NCBI GenBank assembly: GCA_963739515.1
Contig: CAVUAO010000002.1
Location: 51,263 to 115,262, forward strand
DNA from: an uncultured Chloroflexia bacterium
GTDB taxonomy: Bacteria; Chloroflexota; Dehalococcoidia; Dehalococcoidales; RBG-16-60-22
Direction: 5' to 3'
DNA length: 64,000 bases
This document shows positions 25,509-46,790 of this stretch, one piece after another (positions within the stretch are counted from its first letter, which is position 1; every line of letters begins with the position of its first letter). Position numbers and translations under genes: made by a program. The notes under the pieces were generated by a model. It was given only the letters and a program-made list of their open reading frames with translations, had not been told where the DNA came from and made no database searches.

Positions 25509-25534
25509 CATTCTTAAACTGTCAGGAGAAAAAT

Positions 25535-27625
25535 ATGCCTTCCCCGAAATTCGAAAAGCTTATGGAGCCCGGCCGCATCGGCCCGGTGAAGACCCGTAAC
25601 CGCATTATCAAGACCGGCGCCGGGACGTTCATGTGGCACGAGGATGAGACCCGTATGAACGCGGCTATCCTGGCTTATTACGAGTCGCTGGCCCGGGGCG
25701 GCGTCGGGCTTTTGATTGTCGAGTCCCCGACGATTGACTACCCTTTGGGCGCGCGCTGGCGGGAGCGCTACCGTATTGACGACGATAAATATATTCAGGG
25801 TCTCAGCGAGCTGACACAGATAATCCATAAATACGGCTGCCCCGCGTTCATGCAGATGAACCACGACGGCCCCTGGCAGCGGGCGCTGCTGGGAAATACG
25901 CCTTTCTTCGATGGTCAGCCCATCGCCGCTTCGCCGGTTACCGTGAAAGCCGCTAACGATTTTCATAACGAAATGCCCCACCCTCTTACCATCCCGGAAA
26001 TCGAGGTCATTATCGATAAGTTCGCCAGCGCCGCCGTGCGCGCCCAAAAAGCCGGCTTCGATGGCGTGGATATCAATGCCGCCAGCAGCCACCTGCTGCA
26101 TAATTTTTTGTCGCCCTTCTGGAACCGGCGCCAGGATATCTATGGCGGCACTCTCGAAAACCGGGCGCGTTTTGTGACCTCCATCGTCAAAGAGATTAAA
26201 AAACGTCTGGGCAAGGACTTCCCGGTATCCGTTTGCATAAATGCCAGGGAATACGGCCGACTCGCCGGTATTTCCGATGATAAGTGCCTGACGGTGGCCG
26301 ACGCTAAAGGGACGGCGCGTTTGCTGGAGGCGGCCGGCGCCGATGCCATCCACGTGCGCAGCCACTGGCTGGGCTACCACGTCGGCGGTTATCTCCCCGA
26401 CCTGCTTTTCTATCCGGAGCCGCCCATCCCTTTAAAATCTTTCCCGAAAGAATATCACGCGCGTCGGCGCGGTCGGGCGTGGAACGTCGAGTTCGCCGCC
26501 GGCATCAAGCAGGCGGTCTCTATTCCGGTGATGGTGGTCGCCAAGCTCGACCCCGTCCTGGGGGAAAACGCCCTGCGGGAAGGCAAAGCTGACTTTATTG
26601 CCATGACCCGGCGCCTTCAGGCCGACCCCGACCTCCCCAACAAGGTCGCCGCCGGTAAATGGGAGGATATTGCCCCCTGCACCGCCTGTGAAAACTGCCT
26701 GGGGAGCCGGCGCTGTCGCATCAATGCCTTCATGGGCAAAGAGTATAATACCGTCGCAAAAGCGACTAACAAGAAAAAGGTTTTAGTGGTCGGGGCAGGC
26801 CCGGCCGGGCTTGAGGCCGCCAGGGTGGCCGCATTGCGTGGCCATGACGTTGCCCTTTACGATAAGCTGAACCGCGTCGGAGGGTTGTTGCCCATTGCCG
26901 CGATGGTCAAGGGCACCGAGCTTGAAGACCTGCCGGCGATGGTCCACTATTTTAGGCGTCAGTTGAAAAAACTGGACGTTAAAATAAACCTTGGCCAAGA
27001 GGTAAATTCGGCCATTATCGACCAGGTCAAGCCGGATGTGGTTATCCTCGCTACCGGCGGCACGCCGGCTATGCCGGAGATAAAAGGCATCGGTGGCCGG
27101 AACGTCGTCAGTAACGCTGCCCTCCACCGCAAACTCAAGTTTTATCTGCGTTTTTTCAGTCCGCAGGCCCTCCGCTGGCTGACGCGCTTTTATCTGCCGG
27201 TCGGCAAGAGGGTGGTGATTATCGGCGGCAGTCTGCACGGCTGTGAGCTTGGCGAGTTCCTCGCCCGGCGGGGCCGGCAGGTCACTATCGTGGAAAAATC
27301 GGCTACGTTGGGGCAGGGGATGGTAGACGTCATCCAGGCTTACCTGTTCGACTGGTTTCGCAAGAAGGCCGTGACCCTCATTAGCGGGGTGAAAGAGTAC
27401 GTGGAAATCACGGACAAAGGCTTGACGATAGTTAATCAAGAGGGTGAAAAGCAGACCATCCCCGCCGATACTGTTATCCCCGCCCTTCCCCTTTCTCCCG
27501 ATTTGAAACTTTACGAAAGTCTCAAAGGCAAAGTATCGGAAATTTATGCCATCGGCGATTGTATCGAGCCGCTTCTGATTGCCGATGCTGTCAGCAAGGG
27601 TATGGAAACCGCCCGAAATATCTAG
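25535..27625 (+). CDS. NADH:flavin oxidoreductase / ene-reductase (OYE barrel, Fe-S and FAD domain; FadH/BaiCD-like)
   Basis: GFDGVDINAA, FLSP.WNRR.D.YGG, CTACENC, VVGAGPAG, IGD; start MPSPK after AGGAG. Confidence 0.92.
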   Translation: MPSPKFEKLMEPGRIGPVKTRNRIIKTGAGTFMWHEDETRMNAAILAYYESLARGGVGLLIVESPTIDYPLGARWRERYRIDDDKYIQGLSELTQIIHKYGCPAFMQMNHDGPWQRALLGNTPFFDGQPIAASPVTVKAANDFHNEMPHPLTIPEIEVIIDKFASAAVRAQKAGFDGVDINAASSHLLHNFLSPFWNRRQDIYGGTLENRARFVTSIVKEIKKRLGKDFPVSVCINAREYGRLAGISDDKCLTVADAKGTARLLEAAGADAIHVRSHWLGYHVGGYLPDLLFYPEPPIPLKSFPKEYHARRRGRAWNVEFAAGIKQAVSIPVMVVAKLDPVLGENALREGKADFIAMTRRLQADPDLPNKVAAGKWEDIAPCTACENCLGSRRCRINAFMGKEYNTVAKATNKKKVLVVGAGPAGLEAARVAALRGHDVALYDKLNRVGGLLPIAAMVKGTELEDLPAMVHYFRRQLKKLDVKINLGQEVNSAIIDQVKPDVVILATGGTPAMPEIKGIGGRNVVSNAALHRKLKFYLRFFSPQALRWLTRFYLPVGKRVVIIGGSLHGCELGEFLARRGRQVTIVEKSATLGQGMVDVIQAYLFDWFRKKAVTLISGVKEYVEITDKGLTIVNQEGEKQTIPADTVIPALPLSPDLKLYESLKGKVSEIYAIGDCIEPLLIADAVSKGMETARNI

Positions 27626-27639
27626 AAGGAGCGCCAGTA

Positions 27640-30614: not shown

Positions 30615-30691
30615 TGGTAGCGCATACGGGATTCGAACCCGTGATCTCGTCCTTGAGAGGGACGCGTCCTAGGCCGCTAGACGAATGCGCC
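30615..30691 (-). tRNA. tRNA-Glu (CTC)
   Basis: 77-nt cloverleaf GGCGCAT...; anticodon arm CGTCC-CTCTCAA-GGACG; GGTTCGAATCC; CCA. Confidence 0.97.
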
Positions 30692-31272: not shown

Positions 31273-32055
31273 TTATCCTGAGGTCATGCCCCCGTCGATG
31301 GGCATCGCGTGTCCGGTGATAAACGATGCCTCGTCGGAGCACAGCCAGATGACGGCCTCGGCCATGTCTTCGGGCGTGCCTATCCGCCTCATGGGAATGA
31401 TGTTCATCATCTGTTCTTTTTGTCCGGGTGTTGCCCCGGTCAGGTATTCAAATAGCAGCGTTCTCTCCGTCGGTCCCGGCAATATCGTATTGACGCGGAT
31501 GCCGGCAGTGGCGCCTTCCAGAGCACCGGTCTTGGTCAGCGCTATCAAGCCGCTTTTACTGGCATTGTACGCGCAGAAGCCCGGTACGGGTTTCCATGCC
31601 CCGACCGACGCGGTATTGACGATGACGCCGTATTTCTGCCGGAGCATCTGTTTCATCTCGTATTTCATGCACAGGAAAACGCCCTTAAGGTTGATATCTA
31701 TCGTGCGGTCCCAGATTTCCTCCGGGCAATCCACGATGTTGACGAGGGGCACGCGCTTGCCGTCCGGCCCGATGCCGGCGTTATTGAAGGCGTAGTCCAG
31801 CCGACCGTACATCTGGACGCATTTGGTGACCATCGCCTCGACCTCGCCCGCTTTTGCCACGTCGCACTTGATGAAGCTCGCTTCTCCGCCGGCCTTTTTA
31901 ATGGTGCTCACCGTCTCTTCCCCGCCTTTGATGTTGGCGTCGGTGGCGACGATTACCCTGGCTCCCTCGCGCGCGAAAATCTGCGCCGTCACCTTGCCTA
32001 TCCCCGAAGCCCCGCCGGTCACTAGCGCTACTCTGCCTTGAAATTTCTTCGGCAT
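31273..32055 (-). CDS. SDR family oxidoreductase
   Basis: TGGASGIG, NNAG, YNASK. Confidence 0.95.
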   Translation of the reverse strand: MPKKFQGRVALVTGGASGIGKVTAQIFAREGARVIVATDANIKGGEETVSTIKKAGGEASFIKCDVAKAGEVEAMVTKCVQMYGRLDYAFNNAGIGPDGKRVPLVNIVDCPEEIWDRTIDINLKGVFLCMKYEMKQMLRQKYGVIVNTASVGAWKPVPGFCAYNASKSGLIALTKTGALEGATAGIRVNTILPGPTERTLLFEYLTGATPGQKEQMMNIIPMRRIGTPEDMAEAVIWLCSDEASFITGHAMPIDGGMTSG

Positions 32056-32243: not shown

Positions 32244-33050
32244 GTGTTGCTGGAGAACAGGGTAGCTATCGTTACCGGGGGCGCCAAGGGCATGGGCCGC
32301 GCCATCGCTTTGAAATTCGCCGGGGAGGGCTGTGACGTCGTCGTCAACGCCCTGCATATCGAGGGCGCCCGTAAGGTCGCCGACGAGATTAAAGCCCTGG
32401 GGCGCCGGTCCCTGGCGATCAAAGCCGATATCTCGAAAAGCGCCGAGGTCAACGCTATGGTGGCCCGGACGATTAAAAAGTTCGGTAAAATCGATATCCT
32501 GGTGAACAATGCCGGCGGCGTCGGCGTTAAGGGCGGCGATAGCGCCACCGCCACTGAGGCGGACTGGGACCGGATACTGGATGTCAATTTGAAAGGCGCA
32601 TTTTTGTGCTGTATCGCGGTTATTCCCTATATGAAAAAGCAGCGCTACGGCAAAATCATTAACCTTTCCTCGATGGGCGCCGTCCATCCTGCGGTTTCTG
32701 TGCTTCACTATCATTCCGCCAAGGCCGGTATATTGGGCTTGACCACCAACCTGGCTTTCGAGCTGGCGCCTTGCGGTATCTACTGCAACGCTATCGTGCC
32801 CGGCCCCATCGAGACGCCGTTCTGGGATTCGCTCCAGCCGCCGGGACCCGAGCGGGACGCCTTCTTTGCCGCGTTGTGTAAAAAGGAGGTGCCGCTGGGG
32901 AGGATGGGCAAGCCGGAGGATATCGCCGGGCCGGCTTTGTTCCTGGCGTCAGGCATGTCCGACTACGTTACCGGGCAGGTCATTTACGCTGCCGGGGGCC
33001 AGCCGATATCGGCGCAGGCCGCCACGTTTTTATCCGCCCCTCAAGACTAA
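32244..33050 (+). CDS. SDR family oxidoreductase
   Basis: TGGAKGMG, NNAG, YHSAK; GTG start after AAGGAGG. Confidence 0.95.
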   Translation: MLLENRVAIVTGGAKGMGRAIALKFAGEGCDVVVNALHIEGARKVADEIKALGRRSLAIKADISKSAEVNAMVARTIKKFGKIDILVNNAGGVGVKGGDSATATEADWDRILDVNLKGAFLCCIAVIPYMKKQRYGKIINLSSMGAVHPAVSVLHYHSAKAGILGLTTNLAFELAPCGIYCNAIVPGPIETPFWDSLQPPGPERDAFFAALCKKEVPLGRMGKPEDIAGPALFLASGMSDYVTGQVIYAAGGQPISAQAATFLSAPQD

Positions 33051-33075
33051 TCACTAGCAGCTAGCGGAGGTTAGC

Positions 33076-34537
33076 ATGAAAAGACCCAGGATTGTGAATA
33101 AGCGTATTGACGACGATTTGTTGATGAAAAAGCGCCGCGAGGAGCTGGATAAGTGGCCCACCGGCAAAGAGGTGGACTTCGATGAGGCGGTGGCTTACCA
33201 GAAAAGCCTGCCGGACTCAAAAATCTGGTGGAAGGTGATGGTAAAGCTCCGCGATGAAGGCCGGATGAGCGTTTTCCCCCGCGCCGGCACCCCCATCCTG
33301 GAAAAAATGATTGAGCTCTGCCAGGGACTCCGCGATTCCGGCGTCGTCCTCATCCCCGTGACCACGGATAGCTATACCCGCCTCGGCCAGTACGAAAAGG
33401 TCGAGGAAATTCTCAAGGAGTGCTACCGCACCGGCCAGCCTCTCCTGAACGGCTTTCCCATCATTAACTATGGAGTTAATAAGACCCGCAAGCTGATTGA
33501 AAGCGTCGATGCTGCTTTCAGTCCCCGCGGCGCCGGCGGGGAAATCGCCATCGCCTCCGGCATGACCACCGCCGAGGCCGGCCTGGGCTTTTTAGCCTGG
33601 GGCAGCTATTCCAAGAAGATGACTATCCGCGAGCTGGTGGAGAGCAGCCAGAACGGTATGCGGACCATCGGCTGGTACGCCGATAGGGGCGTGATATTGT
33701 GCAAAGACCTCCATGGCTGGCTCCCCGGCGCGCCTTTCCCCCTGAGCGTCAATATCGTCTGTCATGATTATCGAGGCGCTGACGGCGGCGGAGCAGGGCC
33801 AGAAAGCCCTGTATCCGCTGGTGCACTGCATGGGCAACATGGCGCAGGACATGGCCTGGATTCGCCTCGCCCCGCGACTCATCCGCGAGTATCTTGACAA
33901 GTTCGGCTATAGGGACTGCCAGATTATCGGCACCTGTCCCGCCCAGACGCCGCTTTTCCCCGTCGCCATGGACCTGGGCGGCGCTTTCGCCTATCTGAGT
34001 TACGTTTCGATGGTCGGCGCGCTGGCCAGGGCTAACGCCGTCGACCTCCGCAGCATTGATGAAGGGGCCGGCGTTCCCACTCAGGAGACCCACAAGGTGA
34101 GCTACCGCGCCGCCAAGTGGATTTTCGACGTTGTCCGCGAGCAGAAAATCGATATTCAGGTAAAAGATATTGAAGTCGAAGAAAAGATTACCGAAGCTGA
34201 GGTCAGGGCTATTTTTTACCGGATTTTGGACCTCGGCGACGGTGATGTCGTCGACGGCACCATCAAGGCCGTCGAGTCCGGCGTGCTGGATTCCCCATGG
34301 AGTCCCAACGTTAACGTTAAGGATAAAGTGCTGGGCGTGAGGGATGCCCGCGGCGCCTGCCGCTACCTGGAGTTTGGCAACCTCCCCATCCCCAAATACA
34401 TCAAGGAGTTCCACCGCCGCAAAATAGCCGAGCGGGAGAAGCTGGAAGGCAAAAAAGCGGATTACCATACCGCCGTTAAGGACCTCTGGAGCCTCAGCAA
34501 GGGTAAAATCGTGGGTATCCCGCCTTTTAATCAGTAA
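33076..34537 (+). CDS. glmE: Divergent glutamate/methylaspartate mutase epsilon subunit-like protein (one frameshift near 33762)
   Basis: WPTG, PRAG, DSYTR, LLNGFPIINYG, IIEAL.AAEQG and RDARGA.RYLEFGNLP motifs spread over two ORFs that join after removing one base. Confidence 0.85.
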
Positions 34538-34562
34538 TTGACATAATAATGGGAGAATCGCT

Positions 34563-34988
34563 ATGAAAAGAGTACCGACAGTCATTACGGGAACGGTAGG
34601 GATGGACGCGCACGTCATCGGCACCAAGGTTCTCTCCCGCGCTTTACGGGACGCCGGCTTTAAGGTCGTCGAGCTGGGCATGCAGGTCTCCCCGGAAGAA
34701 TTTATCAGCGTCGCCCAGGAGACCCGGGCGGACGCCATCCTGATGAGCTCGCTTTACGGCATGGCTGAACTCGACCTCAAAGGCTTTAACGAGAAACGAC
34801 TTGAAGCCGGACTCGGTGATGTTCTGCTCTATATCGGCGGGAACCTGGTCATCGGTCGGTCCGACCCGCAGGAGGTCGAGAAAAAGTTTAAAGCCCTGGG
34901 GTTCGATAGGGTCTACCCGCCGGAGACCGACACCGGGGTCGGCATCGCCGACCTCATTAACGACCTTAAAGCTAAAGAAAAATTCTAG
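34563..34988 (+). CDS. glmS: Mutase B12-binding sigma subunit
   Basis: DAHVIG base-off/His-on motif, SSLYG, YIGGNL, GFDRVYPP. Confidence 0.92.
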   Translation: MKRVPTVITGTVGMDAHVIGTKVLSRALRDAGFKVVELGMQVSPEEFISVAQETRADAILMSSLYGMAELDLKGFNEKRLEAGLGDVLLYIGGNLVIGRSDPQEVEKKFKALGFDRVYPPETDTGVGIADLINDLKAKEKF

Positions 34989-35014
34989 TGTCATTCTGAG
35001 CGAAGCGAAGAATC
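34988..35014. repeat. Half-copy of a GTCATTCTGAGCGAAGCGAAGAATC-type intergenic repeat
   Basis: Fills almost the whole gap between the S subunit and GlmL genes; no inverted partner seen. Confidence 0.5.
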
Positions 35015-35020
35015 CGTAAT

Positions 35021-36388
35021 ATGGACGATATCCGGCTTCTCATTGATTTCGGCAGCACCTTCACCAAGGTCGTCGCCGTCGACCTCGCCAAAATCGAGGT
35101 CGTGGCTACCGCCCGGGTGCCCTCCACCGTGGACACCGATATCACTTTAGGGCTGGAGGAAGCTTTAGGGCAGATTGCCCAAAAAACCAGCCTGACCAAC
35201 CTCGAAAAGAAGGAAGCCCTCGCCTGCTCCAGCGCCGCCGGCGGCCTGCGTATGGTCTGCGCCGGCTTCGTGCCCGAGCTCACCAGCAAGGCGGCCAGCC
35301 TCGCGGCTTTAGGGGCGGGCGCTAAGGTGGTTGGCAGCTATTCTTATAAGCTAACCGAATCTGAAGTCCATGAAATCGAGTCGTCCGCTCCGGATATCCT
35401 CCTCCTCTCCGGCGGCACGGACGGTGGTGACGAGCAGGTCATTATTCACAACTCCCGCCTGTTTGCCCACACCGGCACCGCTATTAAGAATGTCATCATC
35501 GCGGGTAATAAGACCGCTTATGACGAAATTAAAACCATCTTTAAAGATAGTCCTAAAAACGTTATTTATACCAGGAACGTCATGCCGGAGATAGGTGTGC
35601 TGGATGTCGCCCCGTGCAATAAAGAAATCCGCGCCCTCTTTATGCGGAACATTATCGAGGCTAAAGGCATCGCCAGAGCCAGGGCAATCATCAAGGACGT
35701 CATTATGCCCACCCCTTCCGCCGTTTTAGAGGCCGCCAAGCTTATCGCCGGCGGCTATAAAAACGATGCCGGTTTCGGGGAGCTTATCGTTATCGACCCC
35801 GGTGGCGCTACCACGGACGTCCATTCCATCGCTAAGGGCGCTCCCGCCCGACCCGATATCGTGATGGTCGGCCTGCCGGAGCCTTATGAAAAGAGGACGG
35901 TTGAAGGCGACCTCGGCCTGAAATATAATCTGGACCGGCTTTTGGAGCTGGTCGGCGATCGGGAAACGCCGCCCGGTTTTGCCGCTGTTGTCCGCCGCTT
36001 CCGGGAGGGCGCTTTGCCCTGTAATCAGGAAGAGTTTGCCTGCCATCGGCTTTTGTCTCGCCTTATGGTAGAGGTGGCGATGGAACGCCACGCCGGCCGG
36101 CTCGAAGTCGTCTATAGTCCCGCCGGCGAGAGGCTTATCCAGCACGGCAAGGACCTCACCGGCGTGAAGACCGTTATCGGTACGGGCGGCCCGATTATTT
36201 TTTCGGATAGCCCGCGGCAAATCCTGGAGGGCGTCCTCTTCCGTGAGGAAAATCCGTTCGTTTTGAAGCCCAAAAATCCCGCATTTTATCTGGACGAGCT
36301 ATATCTTCTCTATGCGGTGGGCTTGCTCGCCCAGGTCGAGCCGGCCAGGGCGTTGTCACTTGCCAGAAAGTATCTCAAATCAATATAG
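35021..36388 (+). CDS. glmL: Mutase accessory/reactivase protein GlmL
   Basis: DFGSTFTK, CSSAAGGL, GGTDGG, MPTP, DPGGATTDVHS, KRTVEGDLG. Confidence 0.93.
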   Translation: MDDIRLLIDFGSTFTKVVAVDLAKIEVVATARVPSTVDTDITLGLEEALGQIAQKTSLTNLEKKEALACSSAAGGLRMVCAGFVPELTSKAASLAALGAGAKVVGSYSYKLTESEVHEIESSAPDILLLSGGTDGGDEQVIIHNSRLFAHTGTAIKNVIIAGNKTAYDEIKTIFKDSPKNVIYTRNVMPEIGVLDVAPCNKEIRALFMRNIIEAKGIARARAIIKDVIMPTPSAVLEAAKLIAGGYKNDAGFGELIVIDPGGATTDVHSIAKGAPARPDIVMVGLPEPYEKRTVEGDLGLKYNLDRLLELVGDRETPPGFAAVVRRFREGALPCNQEEFACHRLLSRLMVEVAMERHAGRLEVVYSPAGERLIQHGKDLTGVKTVIGTGGPIIFSDSPRQILEGVLFREENPFVLKPKNPAFYLDELYLLYAVGLLAQVEPARALSLARKYLKSI

Positions 36389-36398
36389 TAAGGGTAAA

Positions 36399-37633
36399 AT
36401 GTTAAGCCATCTTCGCGCTTTAGACTTGACCGACGATAAGGGGTTCCTCTGCGGCAAAATCCTGGCCGACCTCGGTGTGAACGTTATCAAGGTCGAAAAG
36501 CCCGGCGGCGACCCCTCGCGTAACATTGGCCCGTTCTGGGGCGGCCAACTTGGTCTCGAGAGAAGTCTTTACTGGTTCGCCTATAACTCCAATAAAAAGG
36601 GCATCACGCTGGATATTGAAAAATCTAAAGGCAGGGAGACCTTTAAAAAGCTCGTTAGTATCGCCGACTTCGTTATCGAGTCGTTCCCGCCGGACTATCT
36701 GGATAAGCTCGGCGTAGGCTATCAGGATTTAAGCAGAGATAATAAAAAGCTCATCTGGGCGTCGATTACCCCCTTCGGCTCGCAGGGTCCGTATCGCGAC
36801 TACAAGGACTCGGATATCGTCGTTATGGGCCTGAGCGGTACGCTCTACCAGACCGGCGAGGCCGATGGTCCGCCCGTCCATATCAGTATCCCCCAGGCTT
36901 CCCTGCACGCCGGCGCCGATGCCGCCGTCGGCTGTATGGTGGCCTATTACCACCGGGAAAAGACCGGCCTGGGCCAGCACGTCGATGTCTCGATGCAGCA
37001 GTCCGCCGCCTGGTTCCAGGCTAATGCCGTGCCCGTGTACGAGCTCAACGGCACTATCTTAAAGCGCGCCGGGGCTTTCCGCGCCGGCATGAGCTCGCAG
37101 GTGGCGCAGCGGCAGGTCTGGCGCTGTAGGGACGGCTATGTCTTTTTCAACGTCATCGGCGGCCGCACCGGTGCCAAAACGCTGGGTTCTTTAGTCGCCT
37201 GGATGCACGAGGAAAACCTGGCTACCGATTTCCTTCTCCATCTGGACTGGGACAATTTCGACATGTTCAACGTCAGCCGTGAGGTCATGGATAAGATATC
37301 CGGTCCGGTAGGGGATTTTTTCCTGAAACACACTAGGAAAGAATTGCTTCAGGGCGCCGTGTTGAGCGCGGCGTCTCGTTAGGCCCACTTTCCAGTATGC
37401 AGGACCTGCTCGATGACGAGTGCCTTAACGCCCGTCATTACTGGACACAGATTGCCCACCCGGAGCTTAGCGCGAACATTACGTATCCCAAAGAATATAT
37501 CCACTCGTCTTTGGCCGACCTCTCCACGCGCTTGCGCGCTCCTCTCGTCGGTGAGCACAACGCCGAGGTCTATAAAGAGATTGGACTTTCCAAAAAAGAA
37601 CTGCAATCTTTGAAAAAAGATGGGGTAATTTAA
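36399..37633 (+). CDS. Class III (CaiB/BaiF) CoA-transferase, subunit A (frameshift near 37360)
   Basis: LADLG.NVIKVE.PGGD, N.NKK; removing a duplicated GT restores AVERGVSLGPLSSMQDLL...APLVGEHN. Confidence 0.85.
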
Positions 37634-38856
37634 TGCAAAAACGGGAAGGCGTCTTCAGCGGACTTAAAATACTCTCTTTCTCCTGGGCGGTGGTCGGCCC
37701 CTTGACGATGAAGTTTTTCGCTGACCATGGTGCCACGGTTATCCGTATCGAGACAAGTCAGCGCCCCTGCACCATGCGCTCGTCCGCCCCTTATAAAGAT
37801 AATCAGCCCGGCCTGAACCGCGGCGGCTATTTCACCTATTATAACGCCAACATCCTGAGCTTCGCCCTCAATATGAACCACCCTAAAGCCCATGAGATTG
37901 CCCGCAGGCTGGTCGCCTGGTGCGATGTTTTCATGGAAAACTATACCCCCGGTGTCATGGAAAAGTGGGGACTCGATTACGATAGCCTGAAGAAGATTAA
38001 ACCGGATATCATTATGCTGCGCCAGAGTGGCTACGGCTCCTGGGGGCCCTATAAAAACCTGCCGGCTTTCGGCATGGTGCTGGGTCCTATCGCCGGACTC
38101 CCCAACTTTATCGGCTGGCCCGGCAAAGAGCCGCTGCCCGTCGGCGTCTCTGCCTATACGGACTGTATTGCCCCGCGCTTCGCCTCTGCCGCTTTAATCG
38201 CCGCCCTGGATTACCGCAACCGGACCGGCAAAGGCCAGTTGCTGGACGTTTCCCAGTTCGAGGCCGCTATCTCTTTCATCCTGCCCGGCCTGCTGGAATA
38301 CGAAAGCACCGGCCAGGAGCCTGAACGTGTCGGTAACTCTTCGCCTTATGCCGCCCCTCACGGTGTCTATCGCTGTCAGGGCGCCGACCGCTGGTGTACC
38401 ATTGCCGTAACTACCGACGAAGAATGGCAGAGCCTTTGCCGTGAAATGGGCAAACCCGGACTAACCAAAGACAATCGCTTCAATACTCTGGAAAATCGTC
38501 AGAAAAATGAGGATGCGCTGAACCAAATAGTCGAGACATGGACGGCTCATCAGACCCCGGAGGCTGTGATGGCCCGACTTCAGGCGGTCGGCGTGCCGGC
38601 GGGCGTCGTGTCCAATACCGCCGACATGCTTAATGACCCGCAGTTGAAGCAGCGCAACATCTTCTGGCCCATGCACCACACTGAAATGGGCGATTTCACC
38701 CACCTTGGCCAGAGCTTCCAGCTGTCGGCAACGCCCGCCCGGCCTTATTCCCCCGCCCCCCTCCTCGGCGAGCACACCGAGTCAATCTGTACGGAAATCC
38801 TCGGCATGGCCGACGAAGAGTTTATCAGCCTGATGCAGGAAGGCGTTTTTGAGTAA
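37633..38856 (+). CDS. Class III (CaiB/BaiF) CoA-transferase, subunit B
   Basis: ADHGATVIRIE, ENYTPGVM, YTD catalytic Asp, APLLGEHT. Confidence 0.93.
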   Translation: MQKREGVFSGLKILSFSWAVVGPLTMKFFADHGATVIRIETSQRPCTMRSSAPYKDNQPGLNRGGYFTYYNANILSFALNMNHPKAHEIARRLVAWCDVFMENYTPGVMEKWGLDYDSLKKIKPDIIMLRQSGYGSWGPYKNLPAFGMVLGPIAGLPNFIGWPGKEPLPVGVSAYTDCIAPRFASAALIAALDYRNRTGKGQLLDVSQFEAAISFILPGLLEYESTGQEPERVGNSSPYAAPHGVYRCQGADRWCTIAVTTDEEWQSLCREMGKPGLTKDNRFNTLENRQKNEDALNQIVETWTAHQTPEAVMARLQAVGVPAGVVSNTADMLNDPQLKQRNIFWPMHHTEMGDFTHLGQSFQLSATPARPYSPAPLLGEHTESICTEILGMADEEFISLMQEGVFE

Positions 38857-38892
38857 ATAGTCTTATAATATGTAAATAAATGGAGGTAGACC

Positions 38893-39768
38893 ATGCTTAA
38901 GTTTAAAAAAGCCGGCGACTTTAAGGACGTTATTTATGAGAGGAGCGGCTACGTCGCCCGCATTACGCTAAACGACCCCGACACTATGAATACCGGCGTC
39001 AAGGATTTCTGGAAGGCGCTTTCCGTCGTGGAGGAGGCGGATGACCTTAAGGTTCTCATTATCAAGGGGGCGGGGCGCGCTCTGGCTGCCGGCGCTCCCC
39101 TTAACGAGGTCGGCTTCGTCTACGGCTGGAAGGAGCCGAAACACGGTGAAAAAGCCCCCAAAACCGCCCTCCGCACCCGCCTTAAGTTCGATCGGAAACT
39201 TTTTTACGAGTGCGCCCAGAAGCTGCTCTTTTTCCCCAAGATAACGGTCGTGCAGGCGCACGGCTTCCTGCTCGGCGCTTCCATGGATATGTACATGCTG
39301 TGCGACTTTATCGTCGGTGCCGATGACTGCAAGTTCGGGGAAATCGAGGTCAGGCTGGGCATCCCCAACCTCACGATTACTCCCATCATGATACTGCGCT
39401 GCGGCCTTACCAATGCCCTCGACCTCTGTCTGACCGGCCGCATGATTGATGGCAGCGAAGCCGCCCGCATCGGCCTTATCAACCGCGCCGTCCCCGCTGA
39501 CAAGCTGGAAAAAGAGGTCAACCGTTACGCCGAGGGCTTCTCCAAATTCCCCTTCGACGGTATTGCCATGGGCAAGACCTCCAAGCAAATCGTTTACGAC
39601 ATGATGGGTATTACCACCGGCCTGACCAACCACTTTATGATGCACACCCTGGGCACGAATATCCACTTCGAAGAGGATGAATTCAATTTCTTCAAGGCGC
39701 GGCGCGATATGGGCGTACGCGATGCCATCCACGCCCGCAATAAACTCTATGAGCAACTGGACAAATAA
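38893..39768 (+). CDS. Enoyl-CoA hydratase/isomerase (crotonase) family protein
   Basis: GAGRALAAG, FGEIEVRLG, LTGR.IDGSEA..IGLINR. Confidence 0.9.
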   Translation: MLKFKKAGDFKDVIYERSGYVARITLNDPDTMNTGVKDFWKALSVVEEADDLKVLIIKGAGRALAAGAPLNEVGFVYGWKEPKHGEKAPKTALRTRLKFDRKLFYECAQKLLFFPKITVVQAHGFLLGASMDMYMLCDFIVGADDCKFGEIEVRLGIPNLTITPIMILRCGLTNALDLCLTGRMIDGSEAARIGLINRAVPADKLEKEVNRYAEGFSKFPFDGIAMGKTSKQIVYDMMGITTGLTNHFMMHTLGTNIHFEEDEFNFFKARRDMGVRDAIHARNKLYEQLDK

Positions 39769-39770
39769 AA

Positions 39771-41168
39771 ATGGACGCGGCATATTCTTTAGCAAAGAAC
39801 CTGGTCGACACTAAATATGACAACCTTCCCCCTGACGTCGTCGCGCACACTAAGAAGCAGGTGCTGGATATTCTTGGCGTGGCACTGGGCGGCTCGGCGA
39901 AAGCCGGCGTTAGCGAGCTGGCGGAAATCGTGTCCGACTGGGGAGGTAAAGAGGAAAGTACCATATGGTGCTACGGTAAAAAGGTGCCCGCCCCGAACGC
40001 CGCCCAGGTGAATGCCTCGATGGGCCATGCCCTGGATTACGATGATACCGGCGATGGTCCCACCCATCCCTCGGTGGTTGTCGTTCCCACCGCTTTAGCT
40101 ATGGCCGAGCGTCAGGGCGGTGTCAGAGGGAAAGAGTTTATCACCGCCGTCGCCCTGGGGGTTGACATGATGGGCCGACTCGGCCAGGCTTTCCGGTCGG
40201 GTCTGAAGACTGCTCCCGTCGCCGGTCATCCGGGGGCCGGCTGGCACCTGACCGCTTTATACGGCTATCTGGTCTCGGCGGGCGTCGCCGGCAAGCTGCT
40301 CAAGCTGGACCGGGAAGGCGTCCAGAACGCTATCGGCATCGCCTATCACCAGTGCGCCGGCAACGGCCAGTGCGTTACCGAGGGCGCTTTGACCAAGCGG
40401 ATGGGGCCCGGTTTTGCCGCGCGGGGCGGCATCGTCGCTGCTTTGATGGCGGAAAAGGGCATTACGGGAGCTAAAGAGTCGCTGGAAGGGGAGGTGGGCC
40501 TTTTTCGTCTCTACCATAAGGGCGAGTACGACCCTCTGCCATTGACCGCCGGCCTCGGTAAGCGGTTTACCAATTTGAACGTTGCCATGAAGCCCTATCC
40601 CTGCTGTAAAGGCACTCATAGCTATGTTGATGTCGCCCTGGCGATGGTCGCTAAATACCATATCAAGCCCGGAGACATTAAGGAAATCGAGGTCTATTCC
40701 CAGGACGAAGAGTATTTCCTGGTCTATCCGCTGGACAAGCGGAGCCGCCCCGCCAATCCGGTAGATTCCCAGTTCAGTATCCCCTGGGCGGTCGCGGCGG
40801 TTTTCGCCCGCGGACGCGCCGGTATCGGGGAATTTACGGAAGAAGCGATTCAAAGCCCGGATATTCTGGATATCGCCGCTAAAGTGCTTGTTAAGGCGGA
40901 TAAGAACATCGGCGAGAAGCAAGGTCTTGTTCCTGCTAAAATCAGCGTATCTACTAACCATGGCGTCACTTTCTTCGAGCAGGCGGATATTTTAGATGAA
41001 GGAGCGAGCAAACCTTTGCCTTTTTCTGCCTATGAAGCTAAATTCCGCGACTGCGCCTCTTATGCCGTTAAGCCGCGTACTAAAAAGCAAATCGATAAGA
41101 TCGTTTCTATGGTCAAAAAGCTTGAAAATATCGATGATCTCCGTGAGCTGGTTGAACTATTATCGTAG
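39771..41168 (+). CDS. MmgE/PrpD family protein
   Basis: HALDYDD, HP, GWH, KPYPCC, QFSIP. Confidence 0.93.
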   Translation: MDAAYSLAKNLVDTKYDNLPPDVVAHTKKQVLDILGVALGGSAKAGVSELAEIVSDWGGKEESTIWCYGKKVPAPNAAQVNASMGHALDYDDTGDGPTHPSVVVVPTALAMAERQGGVRGKEFITAVALGVDMMGRLGQAFRSGLKTAPVAGHPGAGWHLTALYGYLVSAGVAGKLLKLDREGVQNAIGIAYHQCAGNGQCVTEGALTKRMGPGFAARGGIVAALMAEKGITGAKESLEGEVGLFRLYHKGEYDPLPLTAGLGKRFTNLNVAMKPYPCCKGTHSYVDVALAMVAKYHIKPGDIKEIEVYSQDEEYFLVYPLDKRSRPANPVDSQFSIPWAVAAVFARGRAGIGEFTEEAIQSPDILDIAAKVLVKADKNIGEKQGLVPAKISVSTNHGVTFFEQADILDEGASKPLPFSAYEAKFRDCASYAVKPRTKKQIDKIVSMVKKLENIDDLRELVELLS

Positions 41169-41187
41169 AAGTCAGAGGAGGTAATTT

Positions 41188-42414
41188 ATGGTCTATCCTC
41201 TGGAAGGCATTAAAGTCCTGGATTTCAGTATCGCCGTCGCCGCGCCTTTTGGGGGTGCCATGCTCGCGGATATGGGCGCCGAGGTCATTAAAGTGGAAAG
41301 GGTGCAGGGCGAGGCTACCCGACTCGGCCTTCCCGCCGGTATGGATGATGTCCTCGATACCGATACCACCGGTTCTGAAGATAAAGCCGACTGGATGGCG
41401 TTTAACCGCGGCAAGAAGGACCTGGCTGTAGATATCAGGTCGGCGAAAGGACGGGAAATCGTCCTGAAGCTGGCTAAAGATACCGACGTCATCTTGCAGA
41501 GCTTCCGGCCCGGTGTTGCCGATAGATTGGGTATCGGTTATGAAGCTATCTCGAAAATCAACCCTCGCGTCATTTATTGCTCTTTCTCCGGCTACGGCGA
41601 AACGGGCCCCGTCGCCCACCGCGCCGGCGGCGACATGTGGAGCCAGGCGATGTCCGGTATCGTCAGCGTGATGGGCTATCCCGGCCGTGACCCCCGGATG
41701 CTGCCCTTCCCCGCCTGCGACCATCTCGGCGGGATTCTGGTGGCCTACGCCGTCATGACGGCCCTCTTCGTGCGGGAGCGTACGGGTGTGGGACAGGCTT
41801 TGACGGTGAACAACCTCGATGCCGCGCTATATTTGCAGTTCTCCGGTTTCGCCGAGTATCTGGCGGGCGGCCGGATGCCCTACAAGTCCGGCCGGAGCTA
41901 TGGCACCCCGCCCTTCGGCCCCTTTAAGGCTAAGGATGGCGATGTCCTGACCATCTTCGGCACCGGTCCCATGTGGCCGGATTTCTGCAAGGTGGTAGGC
42001 GTCGAGCACCTGGCGAACGACCCCCGTTTCAGTACCGACGAAGCCCGCTGGGAGAACCGCGAGGAAATCGGCCGGCTTTTGGACGATGCTTTTATGAAGA
42101 AGACCCGCGCCGAGTGGGCGCAGATTTTCCGCGATAATAAAATGCGCTGCGACCCCTGTCTTACCTACGAGGAGCTTTGTGCCCATCTCCAGCTCAAGGA
42201 AAACGATATCATTTATTCCGTTGACCACCCCACCCGCGGCAAGGTAAAAATGCTGGGTCTGCCGGTAAAGCTCAAGAAAACACCGGGCCAGCCTCAGGGT
42301 GCGGCGCCTTTGCTGGGTCAGCACACGGAAGAAATCCTGCTGAAATTAGGCTATAAATCTAAAGAAATCGCTGATATGGAAAAGCGGGGCATAATCAAGA
42401 CCTATAAAAAATAA
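41188..42414 (+). CDS. Class III (CaiB/BaiF) CoA-transferase
   Basis: PLEGIKVLD, LADMGAEVIKVE, NRGKK, SFRPGV, CD, APLLGQHT. Confidence 0.95.
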   Translation: MVYPLEGIKVLDFSIAVAAPFGGAMLADMGAEVIKVERVQGEATRLGLPAGMDDVLDTDTTGSEDKADWMAFNRGKKDLAVDIRSAKGREIVLKLAKDTDVILQSFRPGVADRLGIGYEAISKINPRVIYCSFSGYGETGPVAHRAGGDMWSQAMSGIVSVMGYPGRDPRMLPFPACDHLGGILVAYAVMTALFVRERTGVGQALTVNNLDAALYLQFSGFAEYLAGGRMPYKSGRSYGTPPFGPFKAKDGDVLTIFGTGPMWPDFCKVVGVEHLANDPRFSTDEARWENREEIGRLLDDAFMKKTRAEWAQIFRDNKMRCDPCLTYEELCAHLQLKENDIIYSVDHPTRGKVKMLGLPVKLKKTPGQPQGAAPLLGQHTEEILLKLGYKSKEIADMEKRGIIKTYKK

Positions 42415-42567: not shown

Positions 42568-43257
42568 TCACACCTCCATCACTATCCTGGCGTCCACCAC
42601 CAACGCCGCATCTTTATAAGCGATTATCGGATTAAGGTCGATTTCTTTAATCTCCGGTGTCTTCTCCACAAAATCGGATACTTTCATTAAAATGTCTTCC
42701 AGCGCGTTGATGTCCGCCGCCTCGTGTCCCCGGTAGCCCTGCAGCAGGGGATAGCCCTTGATTTCTTTAATCATTTCCGCGGCGTCCCGTCGCGCTATCG
42801 GCACAATCCGGAAGGCTACGTCTTTCAGCACCTCCACGAATATCCCCCCCAGACCGAACATGATCACCGGCCCGAACTGGGCGTCTTTGAATGTCCCGAC
42901 GATTATCTCCACCCCCGGCCGGGCCATCTTTTCCACGGCCACGCCGTCTATTTTTGCCTTTGGGAACGCTGCTTTCGCCGCCGCCATGATTTCCCCGTAA
43001 GCTTTCTCGACCTCGGCTTTATTTTTCAGCCCTACCTTCACCCCGCCCGCGTCGCTTTTATGGATAATGTCCGGCGAGGCTATCTTCAATACTACCGGAA
43101 AACCGATTTCGGCGCTGATTTCGGCGGCCTGCTTTCGACTGGTTGCCAGCTGTGTCTCGACCACGCTGATGCCGGCTCCTTTGAATATCTCCTTGGCTTC
43201 GATTTCCGTCAATATCGTCCTGCCCTGTTTTTTAGCGTCTGCGATGATTTTATTCAT
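42568..43257 (-). CDS. ADP-forming acetate/acyl-CoA ligase beta (ATP-grasp) subunit
   Basis: GFPVVLKI.SPDI.HKSD.GGV, FGPVIMFGLGG, EIDLNP, VDARI. Confidence 0.93.
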   Translation of the reverse strand: MNKIIADAKKQGRTILTEIEAKEIFKGAGISVVETQLATSRKQAAEISAEIGFPVVLKIASPDIIHKSDAGGVKVGLKNKAEVEKAYGEIMAAAKAAFPKAKIDGVAVEKMARPGVEIIVGTFKDAQFGPVIMFGLGGIFVEVLKDVAFRIVPIARRDAAEMIKEIKGYPLLQGYRGHEAADINALEDILMKVSDFVEKTPEIKEIDLNPIIAYKDAALVVDARIVMEV

Positions 43258-43279
43258 ATTTCCCCCTGTCGCCGGACTG

Positions 43280-44737
43280 TTATTTGGCTCGAGTATCTTC
43301 GAGGTACCGCCGGTACCGGTTGAGGTTCCGCAGTACCCTGGCCGCCCGCCGCGCGTTCGACTGCACGATGATTTTGGCGTTTTTAAAGACCCATTCCACC
43401 TCCGGGTCGATGTTGAAGCCGCGTGATTGCCACATGAGGAATACCGGCTTGCGGTATTTCTCCGCTTTCTCGCTTATCGACCTCAGGTTCTTTTGCTCTT
43501 TTTCGCGGTAGGCTTTGATTTGTGCGTCGCTGAGGCCCATGTATCCCGACAGCATGGCCCTGTCGGTAATTATCGGCGCGAGCAGCAGCGCCGCGTCGAT
43601 ATTCTCGTCTTCCATCACCGCCAGCAGCAGGTCGCTGACGACCGCGAAGTCCGAAGCGTTAGGCCCGGCCATATCGACCGGGTTGCGGCGGGGCCAGCGC
43701 GTCGGCAGCATTTTGTCCAGCTTTTGTAGCGTCGCTTCTTGCAGCGTCCCGATGGTTAACCCTTCCTTTTCGCAGGCCTCGGCGGTCAGCGCCCCCGGCC
43801 CGCCCCCGATGCTGATTATCCCTATCCGGTCCCCCCGCGGAAGCGGCCCATTGAGCAGGGCAATCACCGTGTCGCCGAGCTCTTCATCATCGTCGACCCG
43901 TATCACGCCGGTCTGCCGGAAGGCGGCGGTATAGACCGCGTCCTCGCCGGCCAGCGCCCCGGTATGGGACCTGACCGCTTTAGCCGACTCTTTGGTGCCG
44001 CCGACCTTAACGACGATGAGCGGTTTGCGCGCCGTCAATTTCCTGGCAATCTCGAGGAAACGCCGGCCTTCCCTGAGTCCTTCGATGTAGGCCGCAATCA
44101 CTTTCGTATCGGCGTCTGCGGCGAGGTATTCCAGGTAGTCTTCCATGCGCAGGTCGGTCTCGTTGCCGGTGCTGATGTATTTGCTGAAGGCGGCCCCACC
44201 TTCCGCCAGTCCCCGCACTATCTTGATGCACATATTGCCGCTCTGGGACAGTACCGCTACCGGCCCCCGGGACATTTCGGCTATCTGCCCGAAGGTGGAT
44301 ACCTGCGACCCCGTGTCGGCGTGGCCCATGCTGTTCGGCCCGATGAATCGTAAATTCCCCTGGCGGGCGATATCGTGTATCTCCGCTTCCATCTGGCGGC
44401 CTTCCTCGCCCGTTTCCCCGAACCCGGACGATATGATGACCGCCGCTCTAATGCCCTTGGTGACGCACTGGCGCAGTATCTGCGGGACTAATCTGGCCGC
44501 TACCACGATCACCGCCAGTTCGATGGCGTCCGGTATGTCCAGGACGCTGGGATAAGCCTTCAGCCCGAGGATTTCCGTGGCGTTGGGATTGACCGGGTAG
44601 ATGCGCCGCCCGCTTTTGTTCAGTAAGCCCCTGATGGCGTTGTTTCCCCACGACCCCGCCGTGTTGGACGCCCCGATAACGGCCACCGAAACGGGCGCAA
44701 AAAGATGTTGCCAGTCTTCCGGTCTCATGTTGTTCAA
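43280..44737 (-). CDS. ADP-forming acetate/acyl-CoA ligase alpha (CoA-binding) subunit
   Basis: SVAVIGAS, GPNSMG, SQSG, SHTGALAG phospho-His, NPVD. Confidence 0.92.
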   Translation of the reverse strand: MNNMRPEDWQHLFAPVSVAVIGASNTAGSWGNNAIRGLLNKSGRRIYPVNPNATEILGLKAYPSVLDIPDAIELAVIVVAARLVPQILRQCVTKGIRAAVIISSGFGETGEEGRQMEAEIHDIARQGNLRFIGPNSMGHADTGSQVSTFGQIAEMSRGPVAVLSQSGNMCIKIVRGLAEGGAAFSKYISTGNETDLRMEDYLEYLAADADTKVIAAYIEGLREGRRFLEIARKLTARKPLIVVKVGGTKESAKAVRSHTGALAGEDAVYTAAFRQTGVIRVDDDEELGDTVIALLNGPLPRGDRIGIISIGGGPGALTAEACEKEGLTIGTLQEATLQKLDKMLPTRWPRRNPVDMAGPNASDFAVVSDLLLAVMEDENIDAALLLAPIITDRAMLSGYMGLSDAQIKAYREKEQKNLRSISEKAEKYRKPVFLMWQSRGFNIDPEVEWVFKNAKIIVQSNARRAARVLRNLNRYRRYLEDTRAK

Positions 44738-44805: not shown

Positions 44806-46627
44806 TTATCGCTGGCCGGCGGTTTTTTGCGGCGGCCAGAGCTCTTCGGCGATATCGTTTAATCCCAGCTCCAGCAGCTTTTTCCGGCTGGGCTTGGTCG
44901 TGACCCTGTCCCAGTCCATCGCACCGAGGTTCCAGTACACCTGGGCGTCCAGGTCGGCGGTAACCCCCGCCAGCGGTCCTTCTGTTTGCGGCGGCTGGCC
45001 GATTATCCGACCGTGCACTTTACGTTTCAGGGGATTGTCTCCCTCCCGCAGATTGAAAACGTGCCGCATCACCTCGATGCGCTCGCCGCACTTCAGGATT
45101 TCTTCCAGCGGGCGCTGCCATCCCGTCACCGCCGCGAGGAATTCAGCGGCGTATTGTGCTCCGTTGACCATGGTATTGATGTGCAGGCAGAGCCCGGCGG
45201 AGTTTATCACCAGCCACCCGAAGTGCGTCGGCCCGAAGCCGCCCGTATGCCGTCCCGGGGCGGCGTCCATTTTATACTTGGCGGAAGTAGGCTGGCCGGC
45301 AAAGCCGGGAAAATCGGCTTTGGGGTCGTGCAGCCCGAGCTCTTGCCCTCCGATGTGCACCGCGTATGCCTCGGCGCCCCTGCCGATTCTCTCCGCCGCT
45401 TTTTTTACGCCGTCCGCCAGCACGTCCCCGAACCCTTCGCGCCTGGCCAGCTTTTCCGTCATGGCCACCATGGCGCGGTGGTCCCCCCACCTCAGGTCGA
45501 TGCCGTCGGTATCTTTTTTCGTGATAAGGCCATGCTCGTAGCACTCCATGGCAAAGGCGATGACCGTGCCGGCGGAGATAGTATCCACCCCGTACCAGTT
45601 GCAGATATGGTTCGCCATCGCCACGGCCTCGGCGTCCCTGCAAAGGCACATCGCCCCGAAAGCGGCGGCTGTTTCGTACTCCGGCCGCTTCGTGCCGCCG
45701 GGTATTTATATTCCCCGGAGCCTTCTTTCAGCCGGCCGTGGCAGGCCACCGGGCAATGCCAGCAGCCGGCGCGGCTGGCCACGTTTTCGTTAAAGTGTTC
45801 TTTGCTGAGTCCTGAGACGTCGGGCATTTCGATGACCCCCACCCCGCCCCAGTTCTTTACCGGCGTGTCCCCGCTGTGCGCGGAATTATCGGTATGCGAG
45901 CACGTGCCGAAGTTGTGCAGCCCGTTACGGGCCGGGCTTTTATTGATGATGGCTAAATAGTCTTTTCTCAGCCTGTCGGTGGTGCCGGTGTCGTCAATGG
46001 GCACTTTGCCTTCTCCCCGCACCGCCACCGCTTTGAGTTTTTTCGAGCCCATGACCGCCCCCAGGCCGGAGCGCCCCGCCGCCGAGCCCTTATGCGTAAT
46101 TATCGCCGAGATGAGCGAGAGCTTTTCTCCCGCCGGCCCGATGGCGATGACCCTGGTATCGCTGCCGTGTTCCTCTCTTAAAGTATCCTCGGTCTCGAAG
46201 GTGCTTTTTCCCCAGAGGCGCGCGGCATCGCGCAGCTCCGCTTTGCCGTTATTAATAAAAAGATAAATCGGCTTGGGAGAGATGCCCGAAAAAAAGATGC
46301 CGTCATAGCCGGTAAATTTTAGATATGGGCCGAATTCCGACCCGCAGTTGGCGTCCCCCCACCCCCCGGTCAGCGGTGATTTGCCCACGACCGCGTACCG
46401 GCAGCCCAGGGGGCCGGCGTGCCGGTCAATGGTCCGGTCATTACGCCGAGGATGTTCTCCGGCCCCAGCGGGTCGACCCCGCCCCTCTGCCGACTATATA
46501 GGATGCGGGCGCCTACGCCGTATCCCCCGATGTAGTCGCGGTAGAGACCCTCGTCGGGCGTTTCTTCTATAATCTGCCCGCTGGCAAGATTGACGAAGAG
46601 GAGCTTGCCCAGGTATCCTCCGGCCAT
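44806..46627 (-). CDS. Aldehyde:ferredoxin oxidoreductase (W/Mo-pterin), two frameshifts (~46410, ~45697)
   Basis: GGY.GK, DPLGPEN, KSPLTG, IGPAGE, GRSGLGAVMGSK, CWHCPVAC, (P)EYET and GVDTIS motifs across three ORFs. Confidence 0.88.
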
Positions 46628-46716: not shown

Positions 46717-46790
46717 TGGCTGGCGAGCCAGGATTCGAACCTGGGCTAAAGGATCCAAAGTCCTCGGTGCTACCACTACACCACTCGCCA
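46717..46790 (-). tRNA. tRNA-Gln (TTG)
   Basis: 74-nt cloverleaf TGGCGAG...; anticodon arm GAGGA-CTTTGGA-TCCTT; CCA. Confidence 0.97.

Follow-up and report, generated by a model that had tools for sequence, protein, structure and literature searches.

Glutamate mutase of Clostridium cochlearium and Clostridium tetanomorphum (GlmES/MutES with GlmL; EC 5.4.99.1; structures 1CCW, 1I9C and 6H9E) is encoded by a trio of E, S and L genes, and the same trio occurs within a nine-gene operon at positions 32244–42414 of the DNA analysed here, a 64,000-nucleotide stretch (the window) from an uncultured wetland Dehalococcoidales bacterium. The likeness to the clostridial enzyme extends over both mutase subunits: E aligns end to end (E = 6e-88), S matches 1i9c_A (E = 1e-40) and has the DxHxxG motif, and the claw arginines, N123, Y181 and E330 are kept in the subfamily to which the E protein belongs. 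The operon probably encodes an adenosylcobalamin (AdoCbl)-dependent carbon-skeleton mutase of the E2S2 type with a GlmL helper, drawn from a distinct subfamily of the glutamate mutase family; its most likely reaction would interconvert a non-amino glutarate-type diacid and a branched succinate-type isomer and would feed coenzyme A (CoA)-dependent steps.

To our knowledge about a dozen AdoCbl isomerase reactions are known, only two of them on free dicarboxylates, and among AdoCbl mutases only that of Eubacterium barkeri for 2-methyleneglutarate (EC 5.4.99.4) is known to take a free C5 dicarboxylate that has no amino group. In function, though not by sequence, this enzyme offers itself as the counterpart of a claw enzyme that has no amino-binding Glu; a fused E-S relative (P0121, 49% identical) exists in Oscillospiraceae. 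The product of 2-methyleneglutarate mutase passes to a PrpF-type isomerase and free-acid steps and not to CoA-transferases, in which its pathway differs from the operon.

The hydratases of the methylaspartate-cycle and itaconate routes are of the MaoC type and not crotonases. Both the methylaspartate cycle and bacterial itaconate degradation employ class III CoA-transferases on branched C5 diacids, a class to which the three transferases of the operon also belong, whereas the operon enzymes fall far below the equivalog cut-offs and the operon cluster contains no lyase. The methylaspartate cycle has a succinyl-CoA:mesaconate CoA-transferase and a mesaconyl-CoA hydratase (PMC5592240).

The benzylsuccinate module of anaerobic toluene degraders (structures 9FN0 and 7PCS) is ordered BbsEF, BbsG, BbsH (a crotonase), BbsCD and BbsAB (PMC10818641). 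Two of the operon CoA-transferases, CT1 and CT2, each correspond to a different one of the two BbsEF chains, the closest solved relative of the first-gene short-chain dehydrogenase (SDR1) is BbsD, and the operon crotonase occupies the BbsH position. Unlike the Bbs module, the operon has no BbsG-type acyl-CoA dehydrogenase and no BbsAB-type thiolase, its genome has no benzylsuccinate-synthase-like enzyme, and the entry reaction would be a B12-dependent mutase rather than fumarate addition. No description of the subfamily was found in the literature searched.

Genes of the operon

The host genome (2.08 Mb in 8 contigs, 95% complete) is bacterial, and close homologues of its E protein bear the record names of Dehalococcoidales or Dehalococcoidaceae metagenome-assembled genomes (MAGs). 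The nine genes share one orientation with intergenic gaps of −1 to 36 nt and are ordered SDR1, GlmE-like, GlmS-like, GlmL, CT1, CT2, crotonase, PrpD-like and CT3 by Pfam, in agreement with the gene list, coordinates and shared orientation that an earlier note on this DNA had given.

32244..33050, +: SDR1, the short-chain dehydrogenase gene that opens the operon (Pfam adh_short_C2, 206.8 bits)
33076..34537, +: GlmE-like catalytic subunit, 486 codons if read through (PF06368 1–190 and 192–440), its frame-1 part (33076–33762) and frame-2 part (33764–34537) split by an extra base at 33764
34563..34988, +: GlmS-like B12-binding subunit with the DxHxxG motif as DAHVIG (NF002612, TIGR01501, 1i9c_A)
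35021..36388, +: GlmL/MutL accessory protein (PF13941, 505.7 bits; NF040745)
36399..37633, +: CT1, class III CoA-transferase, BbsE/F-like subunit (PF02515; split by two extra bases)
37633..38856, +: CT2, class III CoA-transferase, the other BbsE/F-like subunit (PF02515, 345 bits)
38893..39768, +: crotonase-fold enoyl-CoA hydratase, or hydratase/lyase (PF00378, ECH_1, 82.7 bits)
39771..41168, +: MmgE/PrpD-family protein, only distantly related to PrpD and optional in the operon (PF03972, PF19305)
41188..42414, +: CT3, third class III CoA-transferase (PF02515, 375 bits)

The E gene is read as two open reading frames, 33076–33897 covering positions 1–190 of Met_asp_mut_E and 33764–34537 covering positions 192–440. 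The adjacent CT1 and CT2 genes overlap by 1 nt, and the CT1 match ends at position 251 of 366 in PF02515, with its tail in another frame (37337–37633). No riboswitch was found in the window using Rfam, the only matches being three tRNAs.

The catalytic subunit and its active site

The E subunit was compared with NCBIfam through its intact orthologue from the related genome G006, which is 87% identical to the C-terminal half of the window protein. It scores 347.9 bits against TIGR01503, the glutamate-mutase E equivalog, and is thus below the cut-off of 390.1 bits. S passes both NF002612 (184 bits; cut-off 110) and TIGR01501 (160 bits; cut-off 136), and GlmL reaches 543 bits against NF040745 (accessory_GlmL), above its cut-off of 475. 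The Met_asp_mut_E domain (PF06368) is full-length across the two E pieces, and the G006 protein aligns end to end with 6h9e_B and 1cb7_B. PF06368 has 763 matches in a library clustered at 50% identity, and the matched clusters of the ESM Atlas are all named methylaspartate mutase E.

The nearest proteins outside the subfamily are 49% identical (P0122 and the E-S fusion P0121, of 642 residues) and the rest are at most 39% identical. A FastTree phylogeny of 141 rows places 33 of them, including the window orthologue, in a subfamily on a long stem with support 100, and recovers a second well-supported group, whose 25 members have every residue of the canonical signature (the three arginines, H150 and E171). 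A quick IQ-TREE run on 59 rows representing each group likewise splits off 17 subfamily rows (SH-aLRT 100) and groups 10 canonical rows (SH-aLRT 90). Both trees, of the kind the earlier note had proposed, set the E clade apart from the canonical glutamate mutases, and by these comparisons E is assigned to a separate subfamily of PF06368 within the glutamate mutase family.

In glutamate mutase R66, R149 and E171 hold the migrating glycyl part of the substrate, E171 through its amino group, while R100 and Y177 hold the acrylate part (PMC10947579). In a set of 120 homologues that share 74% identity or more with the G006 protein, R66, R100, R149, N123, Y181 and K183 never change (120/120). The E171 column by contrast holds E in 79, G in 20, N in 11, T in 4, A in 2 and other residues in 4; at H150 there is G (104) or A (16), and at Y177 F (81) or W (39). 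The subfamily further differs from the clostridial enzyme in an eight-residue deletion after position 154 and in the replacement of REPFGP by DxHGW, and its signature reads [FWSY]PR[AG]G, DSYTR, AFxPR, ASGMT, F..[FW]G.Y.K and D.HG[WFL]. The claw arginines are present in all listed subfamily loci but one (L080, with L-R-A at the third site). Loci that share the SDR1-E-S-L-CT1-CT2-crotonase layout have E, N, G or P in the E171 column, and the listed members at or below 70% identity, other phyla included, have G, P, S or A and never E.

Relative to the C. cochlearium chain, the FPRAG, DSYTR and SPRG motifs of the window protein keep R66, R100 and R149, bearing out the arginine claw recognised in the earlier note, and the motif exchanges described there are found as well (QxRHG to SPRGAG, ISYNxPY to FLAWGSY and NREPFGP to CKDLHGW). 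Its 'probable catalytic Glu' fares worse. The Glu of TTAEAG aligns with E171 in the window, yet the column varies even within one operon type, and because a residue that binds a substrate group should not vary so, a catalytic role for this Glu is unsupported and an amino-bearing substrate appears unlikely. The variability argues against such a substrate more strongly than the earlier note did. As judged from the alignments, the mutase retains the three-arginine claw that grips two carboxylates, and the residues fixed in glutamate mutase for the amino group (E171) and for the acrylate part (Y177 and the H150 region) are lost in the subfamily; the kept claw and these unfixed positions point to a non-amino diacid as the most likely substrate.

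Within the wider family, the 141-row PF06368 set has two claw arginines in 28 rows, one in 26 and none in 4, and most of the 50%-identity representatives of the methylaspartate mutase E family (P0124–P0270) are without the canonical pocket.

Conserved gene order and CoA-dependent enzymes

Methylaspartate ammonia-lyase (methylaspartase) was sought in 46 genomes in all with the PF07476 profile (the METHYLASPARTASE search; cut-off 27 bits). The whole 95%-complete host genome gives only a 21-bit partial match on an enolase-sized frame. The host and 40 relatives, of which 17 of the 41 have E, give only partial matches of at most 27.5 bits on enolase-sized frames (profile positions ~134–217), two of which touch the cut-off, and five subfamily-bearing genomes of other phyla give nothing over it. 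The absence of this lyase, which the earlier note had reported for the window and which sets the subfamily apart from clostridial glutamate mutase, therefore holds genome-wide and across the 46 genomes together.

A scan of species genomes returned 395 relatives of the subfamily, and the loci examined are the best 80 of these, mostly from Dehalococcoidales. The members among them that are 52–62% identical come, by record title, from Moorellales, Syntrophorhabdaceae, Leptospirales, Thermodesulfobacteriota, Bacillota, Desulfobacteraceae or 'delta proteobacterium', and Thermoleophilia. At the 42 loci with at least 5 kb of sequence 3′ of E, the downstream genes include S in 37, GlmL in 32, the CT1+CT2 pair in 35, a crotonase in 26, a PrpD-like gene in 23 and CT3 in 23, and 37 of the 42 have a crotonase or a PrpD-like gene; adjoining CoA-transferases are a further difference from the clostridial system. 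The pair is missing at L080, L082, L086, L094, L097, L101 and L103. An SDR1 orthologue (at least 60% identity) lies immediately 5′ of E at 22 of the 49 loci with at least 5 kb upstream.

Three layouts recur. The first is that of the window: SDR2(−)/SDR1-E-S-L-CT1-CT2-crotonase-[PrpD]-CT3, SDR2 being a second, divergently transcribed short-chain dehydrogenase. The second is enoate reductase-cupin-E-S-L-CT1-CT2-PrpD-CT3-PrpD, and the third has a class I CoA-transferase-like gene and a CoA-transferase gene before E-S-CT1-CT2-SDR, a ferredoxin-like protein and an FAD flavoprotein. Loci of the third layout (L083 6824–17554, L074, L085, L088 and L095) are without GlmL and have a carboxylesterase nearby; the class I CoA-transferase-like protein is of 623 residues and the flavoprotein (FAD_binding_2) of 495. 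At L101 (8237–13535, a 'delta proteobacterium' MAG) a single contig has two paralogous subfamily E genes, one on either side of an enoate-reductase homologue that is 65% identical to the one in the window; the two E proteins are 57% and 53% identical to the C-terminal E piece of the window, and 54% and 52% identical to the G006 protein.

The PrpD-like gene is missing in G006 and G019, two of the four relatives whose loci were examined. The PrpD-type dehydration put forward in the earlier note thus keeps its gene and loses its place as a core step, PrpD being optional (23/42 loci). The protein scores only 34.5 bits against the PrpD equivalog of NCBIfam, and among solved structures it comes closest to cis-aconitate decarboxylase (117 bits), with IDS epimerase at 97 bits.

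The best matches of the CoA-transferases, SDR1 and the PrpD-like protein were sought among solved structures. CT1, represented by an intact orthologue (L015:11636–12988), best matches 9fn0_A (205 bits; next 143) and CT2 best matches 9fn0_B (264.5 bits; next 178), these being the two chains of benzylsuccinate CoA-transferase, and CT1 and CT2 are by inference a two-subunit, benzylsuccinate-CoA-transferase-like enzyme, a predicted heteromer. SDR1 best matches BbsD (7pcs_B, 212 bits; next single-domain short-chain dehydrogenase 179), and CT3 best matches a succinate-hydroxymethylglutarate CoA-transferase (9br6, 223 bits). The CoA-transferases have weak matches to NF041294 (158–199 bits) and to succinate-glutarate CoA-transferase (168–228 bits), whose equivalog cut-offs are 700–750 bits, and the crotonase reaches no NCBIfam equivalog. 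Six acyl-CoA dehydrogenase and six thiolase-like matches are present in the host genome, all outside the window. No glycyl-radical (PFL-like) enzyme was found in the 95%-complete genome, and a substituted succinate can therefore not arise here by fumarate addition.

Several neighbouring genes recur with the operon:

31273..32055, −: SDR2, second short-chain dehydrogenase, divergently transcribed (Pfam; 36% identical to SDR1)
25460..27625, +: enoate/dienoyl-CoA-reductase-type flavoprotein of 721 residues with OYE and FAD/NAD domains (PF00724, PF07992)
42568..44737, −: ADP-forming acyl-CoA synthetase, beta 42568–43257 (ATP-grasp_5) and alpha 43280–44737 (Succ_CoA_lig and CoA_binding)
44806..46493, −: aldehyde:ferredoxin oxidoreductase (AFOR), frameshifted (AFOR_N and AFOR_C in two overlapping frames)

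SDR2 stands next to SDR1 in most of the Dehalococcoidales loci tabulated. The flavoprotein is possibly part of the same pathway as the operon: homologues at 50% identity or more occur at 9 of the 49 loci with upstream sequence, and one lies directly before E in L053, L056 and L058–L063. The acyl-CoA synthetase is recurrent downstream of CT3 in many loci, and AFOR, whose first frame has AFOR_N with part of AFOR_C and whose second has the remainder of AFOR_C, is found at 60% identity or more at 19 of the 49.

The region upstream of the operon also contains a CitMHS-family carboxylate transporter (22915–24153), an alpha/beta hydrolase (24167–24991, −), three weak-cupin open reading frames (27559–29048) and a 488-residue protein without a Pfam match (29099–30565); the reductase and a cupin recur immediately 5′ of E in other Dehalococcoidales loci. 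A rightwards-transcribed group at 18394–21813 (+), with a radical-SAM gene resembling lysine-2,3-aminomutase and, after it, a pair of ATP-grasp genes of the D-Ala-D-Ala-ligase type, appears unrelated. The tRNA genes are at 30618–30691, 46720–46790 and 48476–48560 (−), one of them between the cupin block and the operon.

Candidate substrates and the frame breaks

In the proposed reaction, E2S2 with AdoCbl and the assistance of GlmL would take a hydrogen from an unactivated diacid bound in the claw, and a carboxyl-bearing fragment would shift by one carbon, interconverting glutarate-type and branched succinate-type skeletons. CT1/CT2 would then activate the branched diacid to its CoA ester, with succinyl-CoA as the probable donor, and the crotonase and the BbsD-like SDR1 would hydrate and oxidise that ester. 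The PrpD-like protein, CT3, the enoate-reductase-type flavoprotein, AFOR and the ADP-forming acyl-CoA synthetase would be variable accessories. In falling order of precedent, the candidate substrates are 2-methylene-, 2-hydroxy- or 2-oxoglutarate, 2-alkylidene-glutarates, and unsubstituted or 3-substituted (aryl) glutarates, the last of which would yield methyl- or benzylsuccinates. The core of the earlier note's proposal, a mutase for a dicarboxylate other than glutamate within a CoA pathway, agrees with the separate clade, the sub-cut-off E, the missing methylaspartase and the conserved CoA-transferase pair; only its catalytic Glu and PrpD step fall away.

Several points weigh against this reading. 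A substrate cannot be read from sequence, on which the whole proposal is built, and Glu is present at E171 in the window and in 79 of the 120 close homologues, so that an amino or hydroxy substituent is possible for this clade. MAFFT and HMMER differ in aligning the loop of residues 170–178, which makes the Y177 and H150 calls somewhat uncertain. Seven of the 42 loci, mostly from other phyla, are without the CoA-transferase pair, and the cluster has neither the dehydrogenase nor the thiolase of the Bbs module. The Bbs likeness is drawn from best matches among solved structures, and SmtAB of Chloroflexus, which we take to be another heteromeric class III transferase, is outside that set. The contigs that restore the broken reading frames (below) come from relatives ~95% identical and not from the same strain.

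A narrower version of the same reading, which is possible but rather doubtful, has 2-methyleneglutarate converted to 3-methylitaconate, or 2-hydroxy- or 2-oxoglutarate to 3-methylmalate or 3-methyloxaloacetate, with the short-chain dehydrogenase setting the oxidation state and a CoA-dependent itaconate- or mesaconate-like route following. It accounts for the loss of the amino-binding Glu beside a kept claw, for the lack of an acyl-CoA dehydrogenase in the cluster, for a dehydrogenase as the first gene and for a protein resembling PrpD and cis-aconitate decarboxylase. PrpD-family genes are also found in itaconate clusters, and glutamate mutase is said, in work by Roymoulik et al. of 2000, to turn over 2-hydroxyglutarate slowly, both of which count in its favour. 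However, the E. barkeri enzyme is no more than a possible member of PF06368, the best 80 of the 395 relatives including no locus from E. barkeri, the cluster has no citramalyl- or methylmalyl-CoA lyase, and CT1, CT2 and SDR1 have best solved matches indicative of larger, benzylsuccinate-type substrates. Nor were the names hydroxyglutarate, oxoglutarate or ketoglutarate mutase found in the literature searched. One HpcH/HpaI and three HMGL-like lyase genes lie elsewhere in the host genome, none near the operon, and these do not discriminate between routes.

Those larger substrates suggest a more specific form of the non-amino diacid mutase, speculative and in itself improbable, in which the enzyme would catalyse a new kind of AdoCbl reaction, as a mutase that interconverts 3-substituted glutarate and (substituted-methyl)succinate, for example from 3-arylglutarate to benzylsuccinate-type acids, or alternatively a 2-alkylidene-glutarate mutase. 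The carboxymethyl group would migrate like the glycyl group of glutamate, and the acrylate part would bear the extra (aryl) substituent. Four features would then be accounted for: the lost E171, Phe or Trp in place of Y177, an aromatic loop that varies, and direct transfer to enzymes like BbsEF, BbsH and BbsD. The (aryl)glutarate option fits the Bbs likeness, the Phe/Trp at 177 and the linked enoate reductase, and it has no precedent. The saturated diacid would come from a precursor of the glutaconate or cinnamate type, sphagnum acid for instance, through the recurrent enoate-reductase-type flavoprotein. Sphagnum acid is given as an example only and was set aside as the specific precursor, since loci also come from aquifer, spring and reactor MAGs (record titles). 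If true, strict anaerobes would have a route into benzylsuccinate-type beta-oxidation without fumarate addition, starting from plant-derived aromatic diacids.

That the operon encodes a true but divergent glutamate mutase is unlikely. A CoA-transferase would then make 3-methylaspartyl-CoA, and the crotonase would eliminate ammonia to give mesaconyl-CoA, hydrated and cleaved elsewhere. The intact claw, the Glu at E171 in the window and most close homologues, and the S and GlmL scores above the glutamate-mutase equivalog cut-offs agree with it, as do the score of E against the C. cochlearium chain (299 bits, similar to the at most 334 bits of non-clade representatives) and the HpcH/HpaI-family lyase candidate elsewhere in the genome. 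Against these stand the replacement of Glu in the E171 column by G, N, P or T among loci of one operon type, H150 and Y177 that are never kept, the score of E below its own equivalog cut-off, the separation from the canonical clade in both trees, and a conserved first-gene short-chain dehydrogenase left without a role. We know of no precedent for crotonase-type ammonia elimination on methylaspartyl-CoA, which further counts against it.

In the assembled sequence E is broken by one extra base (33764) and CT1 by two (37362 and 37365), confirming the frameshifts mentioned in the earlier note. Deleting these bases rejoins the frames, and the resulting residues match the orthologues. The extra bases are not within homopolymers. 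In a screen of sequencing runs none shared half of the window words or more (best 0.26) and no RNA run turned up, and the window was compared with Logan contigs of relatives (~95% identical) from X1 and X3, both of them peat-metagenome runs that belong to a single study. The contigs of both are without bases 33764, 37362 and 37365, with one contig per run per site at full local depth; runs X2 and X5 have no coverage of the sites. The operon orthologues of G019, G010 and G012 are unbroken, and those of G006, the only other few-contig assembly of the genus, are broken elsewhere, in CT1 and CT3. E is an open frame of 473 to 710 residues in 6/6 genomes of the genus, and 15/24 genomes of the family have an E match. 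Identity to the intact L027 orthologue is 95% for the first E piece and 91% for the second, and the ratios of nonsynonymous to synonymous substitution rates (dN/dS) are 0.058 and, 3′ of the break, 0.101.

Because the relatives' contigs are without the extra bases, the relatives are intact and dN/dS is low on both halves of E, the breaks in E and CT1 are very probably, and that in AFOR most likely, assembly errors and not decay. The converse, which the earlier note named as a refuting outcome, that the frameshifts are real and the pathway non-functional in its host, is very unlikely: the given assembly does have three genes with a broken reading frame inside 14 kb, the extra bases lie outside homopolymers and the comparison contigs are from other strains than the host, but exactly these bases are missing from relatives' contigs in two runs, the orthologues are intact in three genomes and E is open throughout the genus, G006 is broken at different positions, no other lesion is seen and dN/dS is 0.10 even past the break, and the two extra bases of CT1 are 3 nt apart, resembling a noisy consensus.

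New here are the frameshift resolution, the counts of the variable Glu, the recurrence of the enoate reductase, BbsD as the closest solved relative of SDR1 and the 3-substituted-glutarate hypothesis. By record title the subfamily is common in Dehalococcoidales of peat, wetlands, aquifers and sediments and occurs in at least seven other lineages. Its members are labelled 'methylaspartate mutase' by JGI and 'hypothetical protein' in NCBI records, and genome-based models that take up the JGI label can therefore wrongly assign glutamate fermentation. Identification of the substrate would add a new B12 reaction. It would probably also reveal a pathway, so far undescribed, by which abundant and uncultured bacteria of the carbon cycle use an acid from plants or detritus anaerobically. 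This subfamily is one case within the large and unexplored diversity of B12 (or B12-like) enzymes in PF06368.

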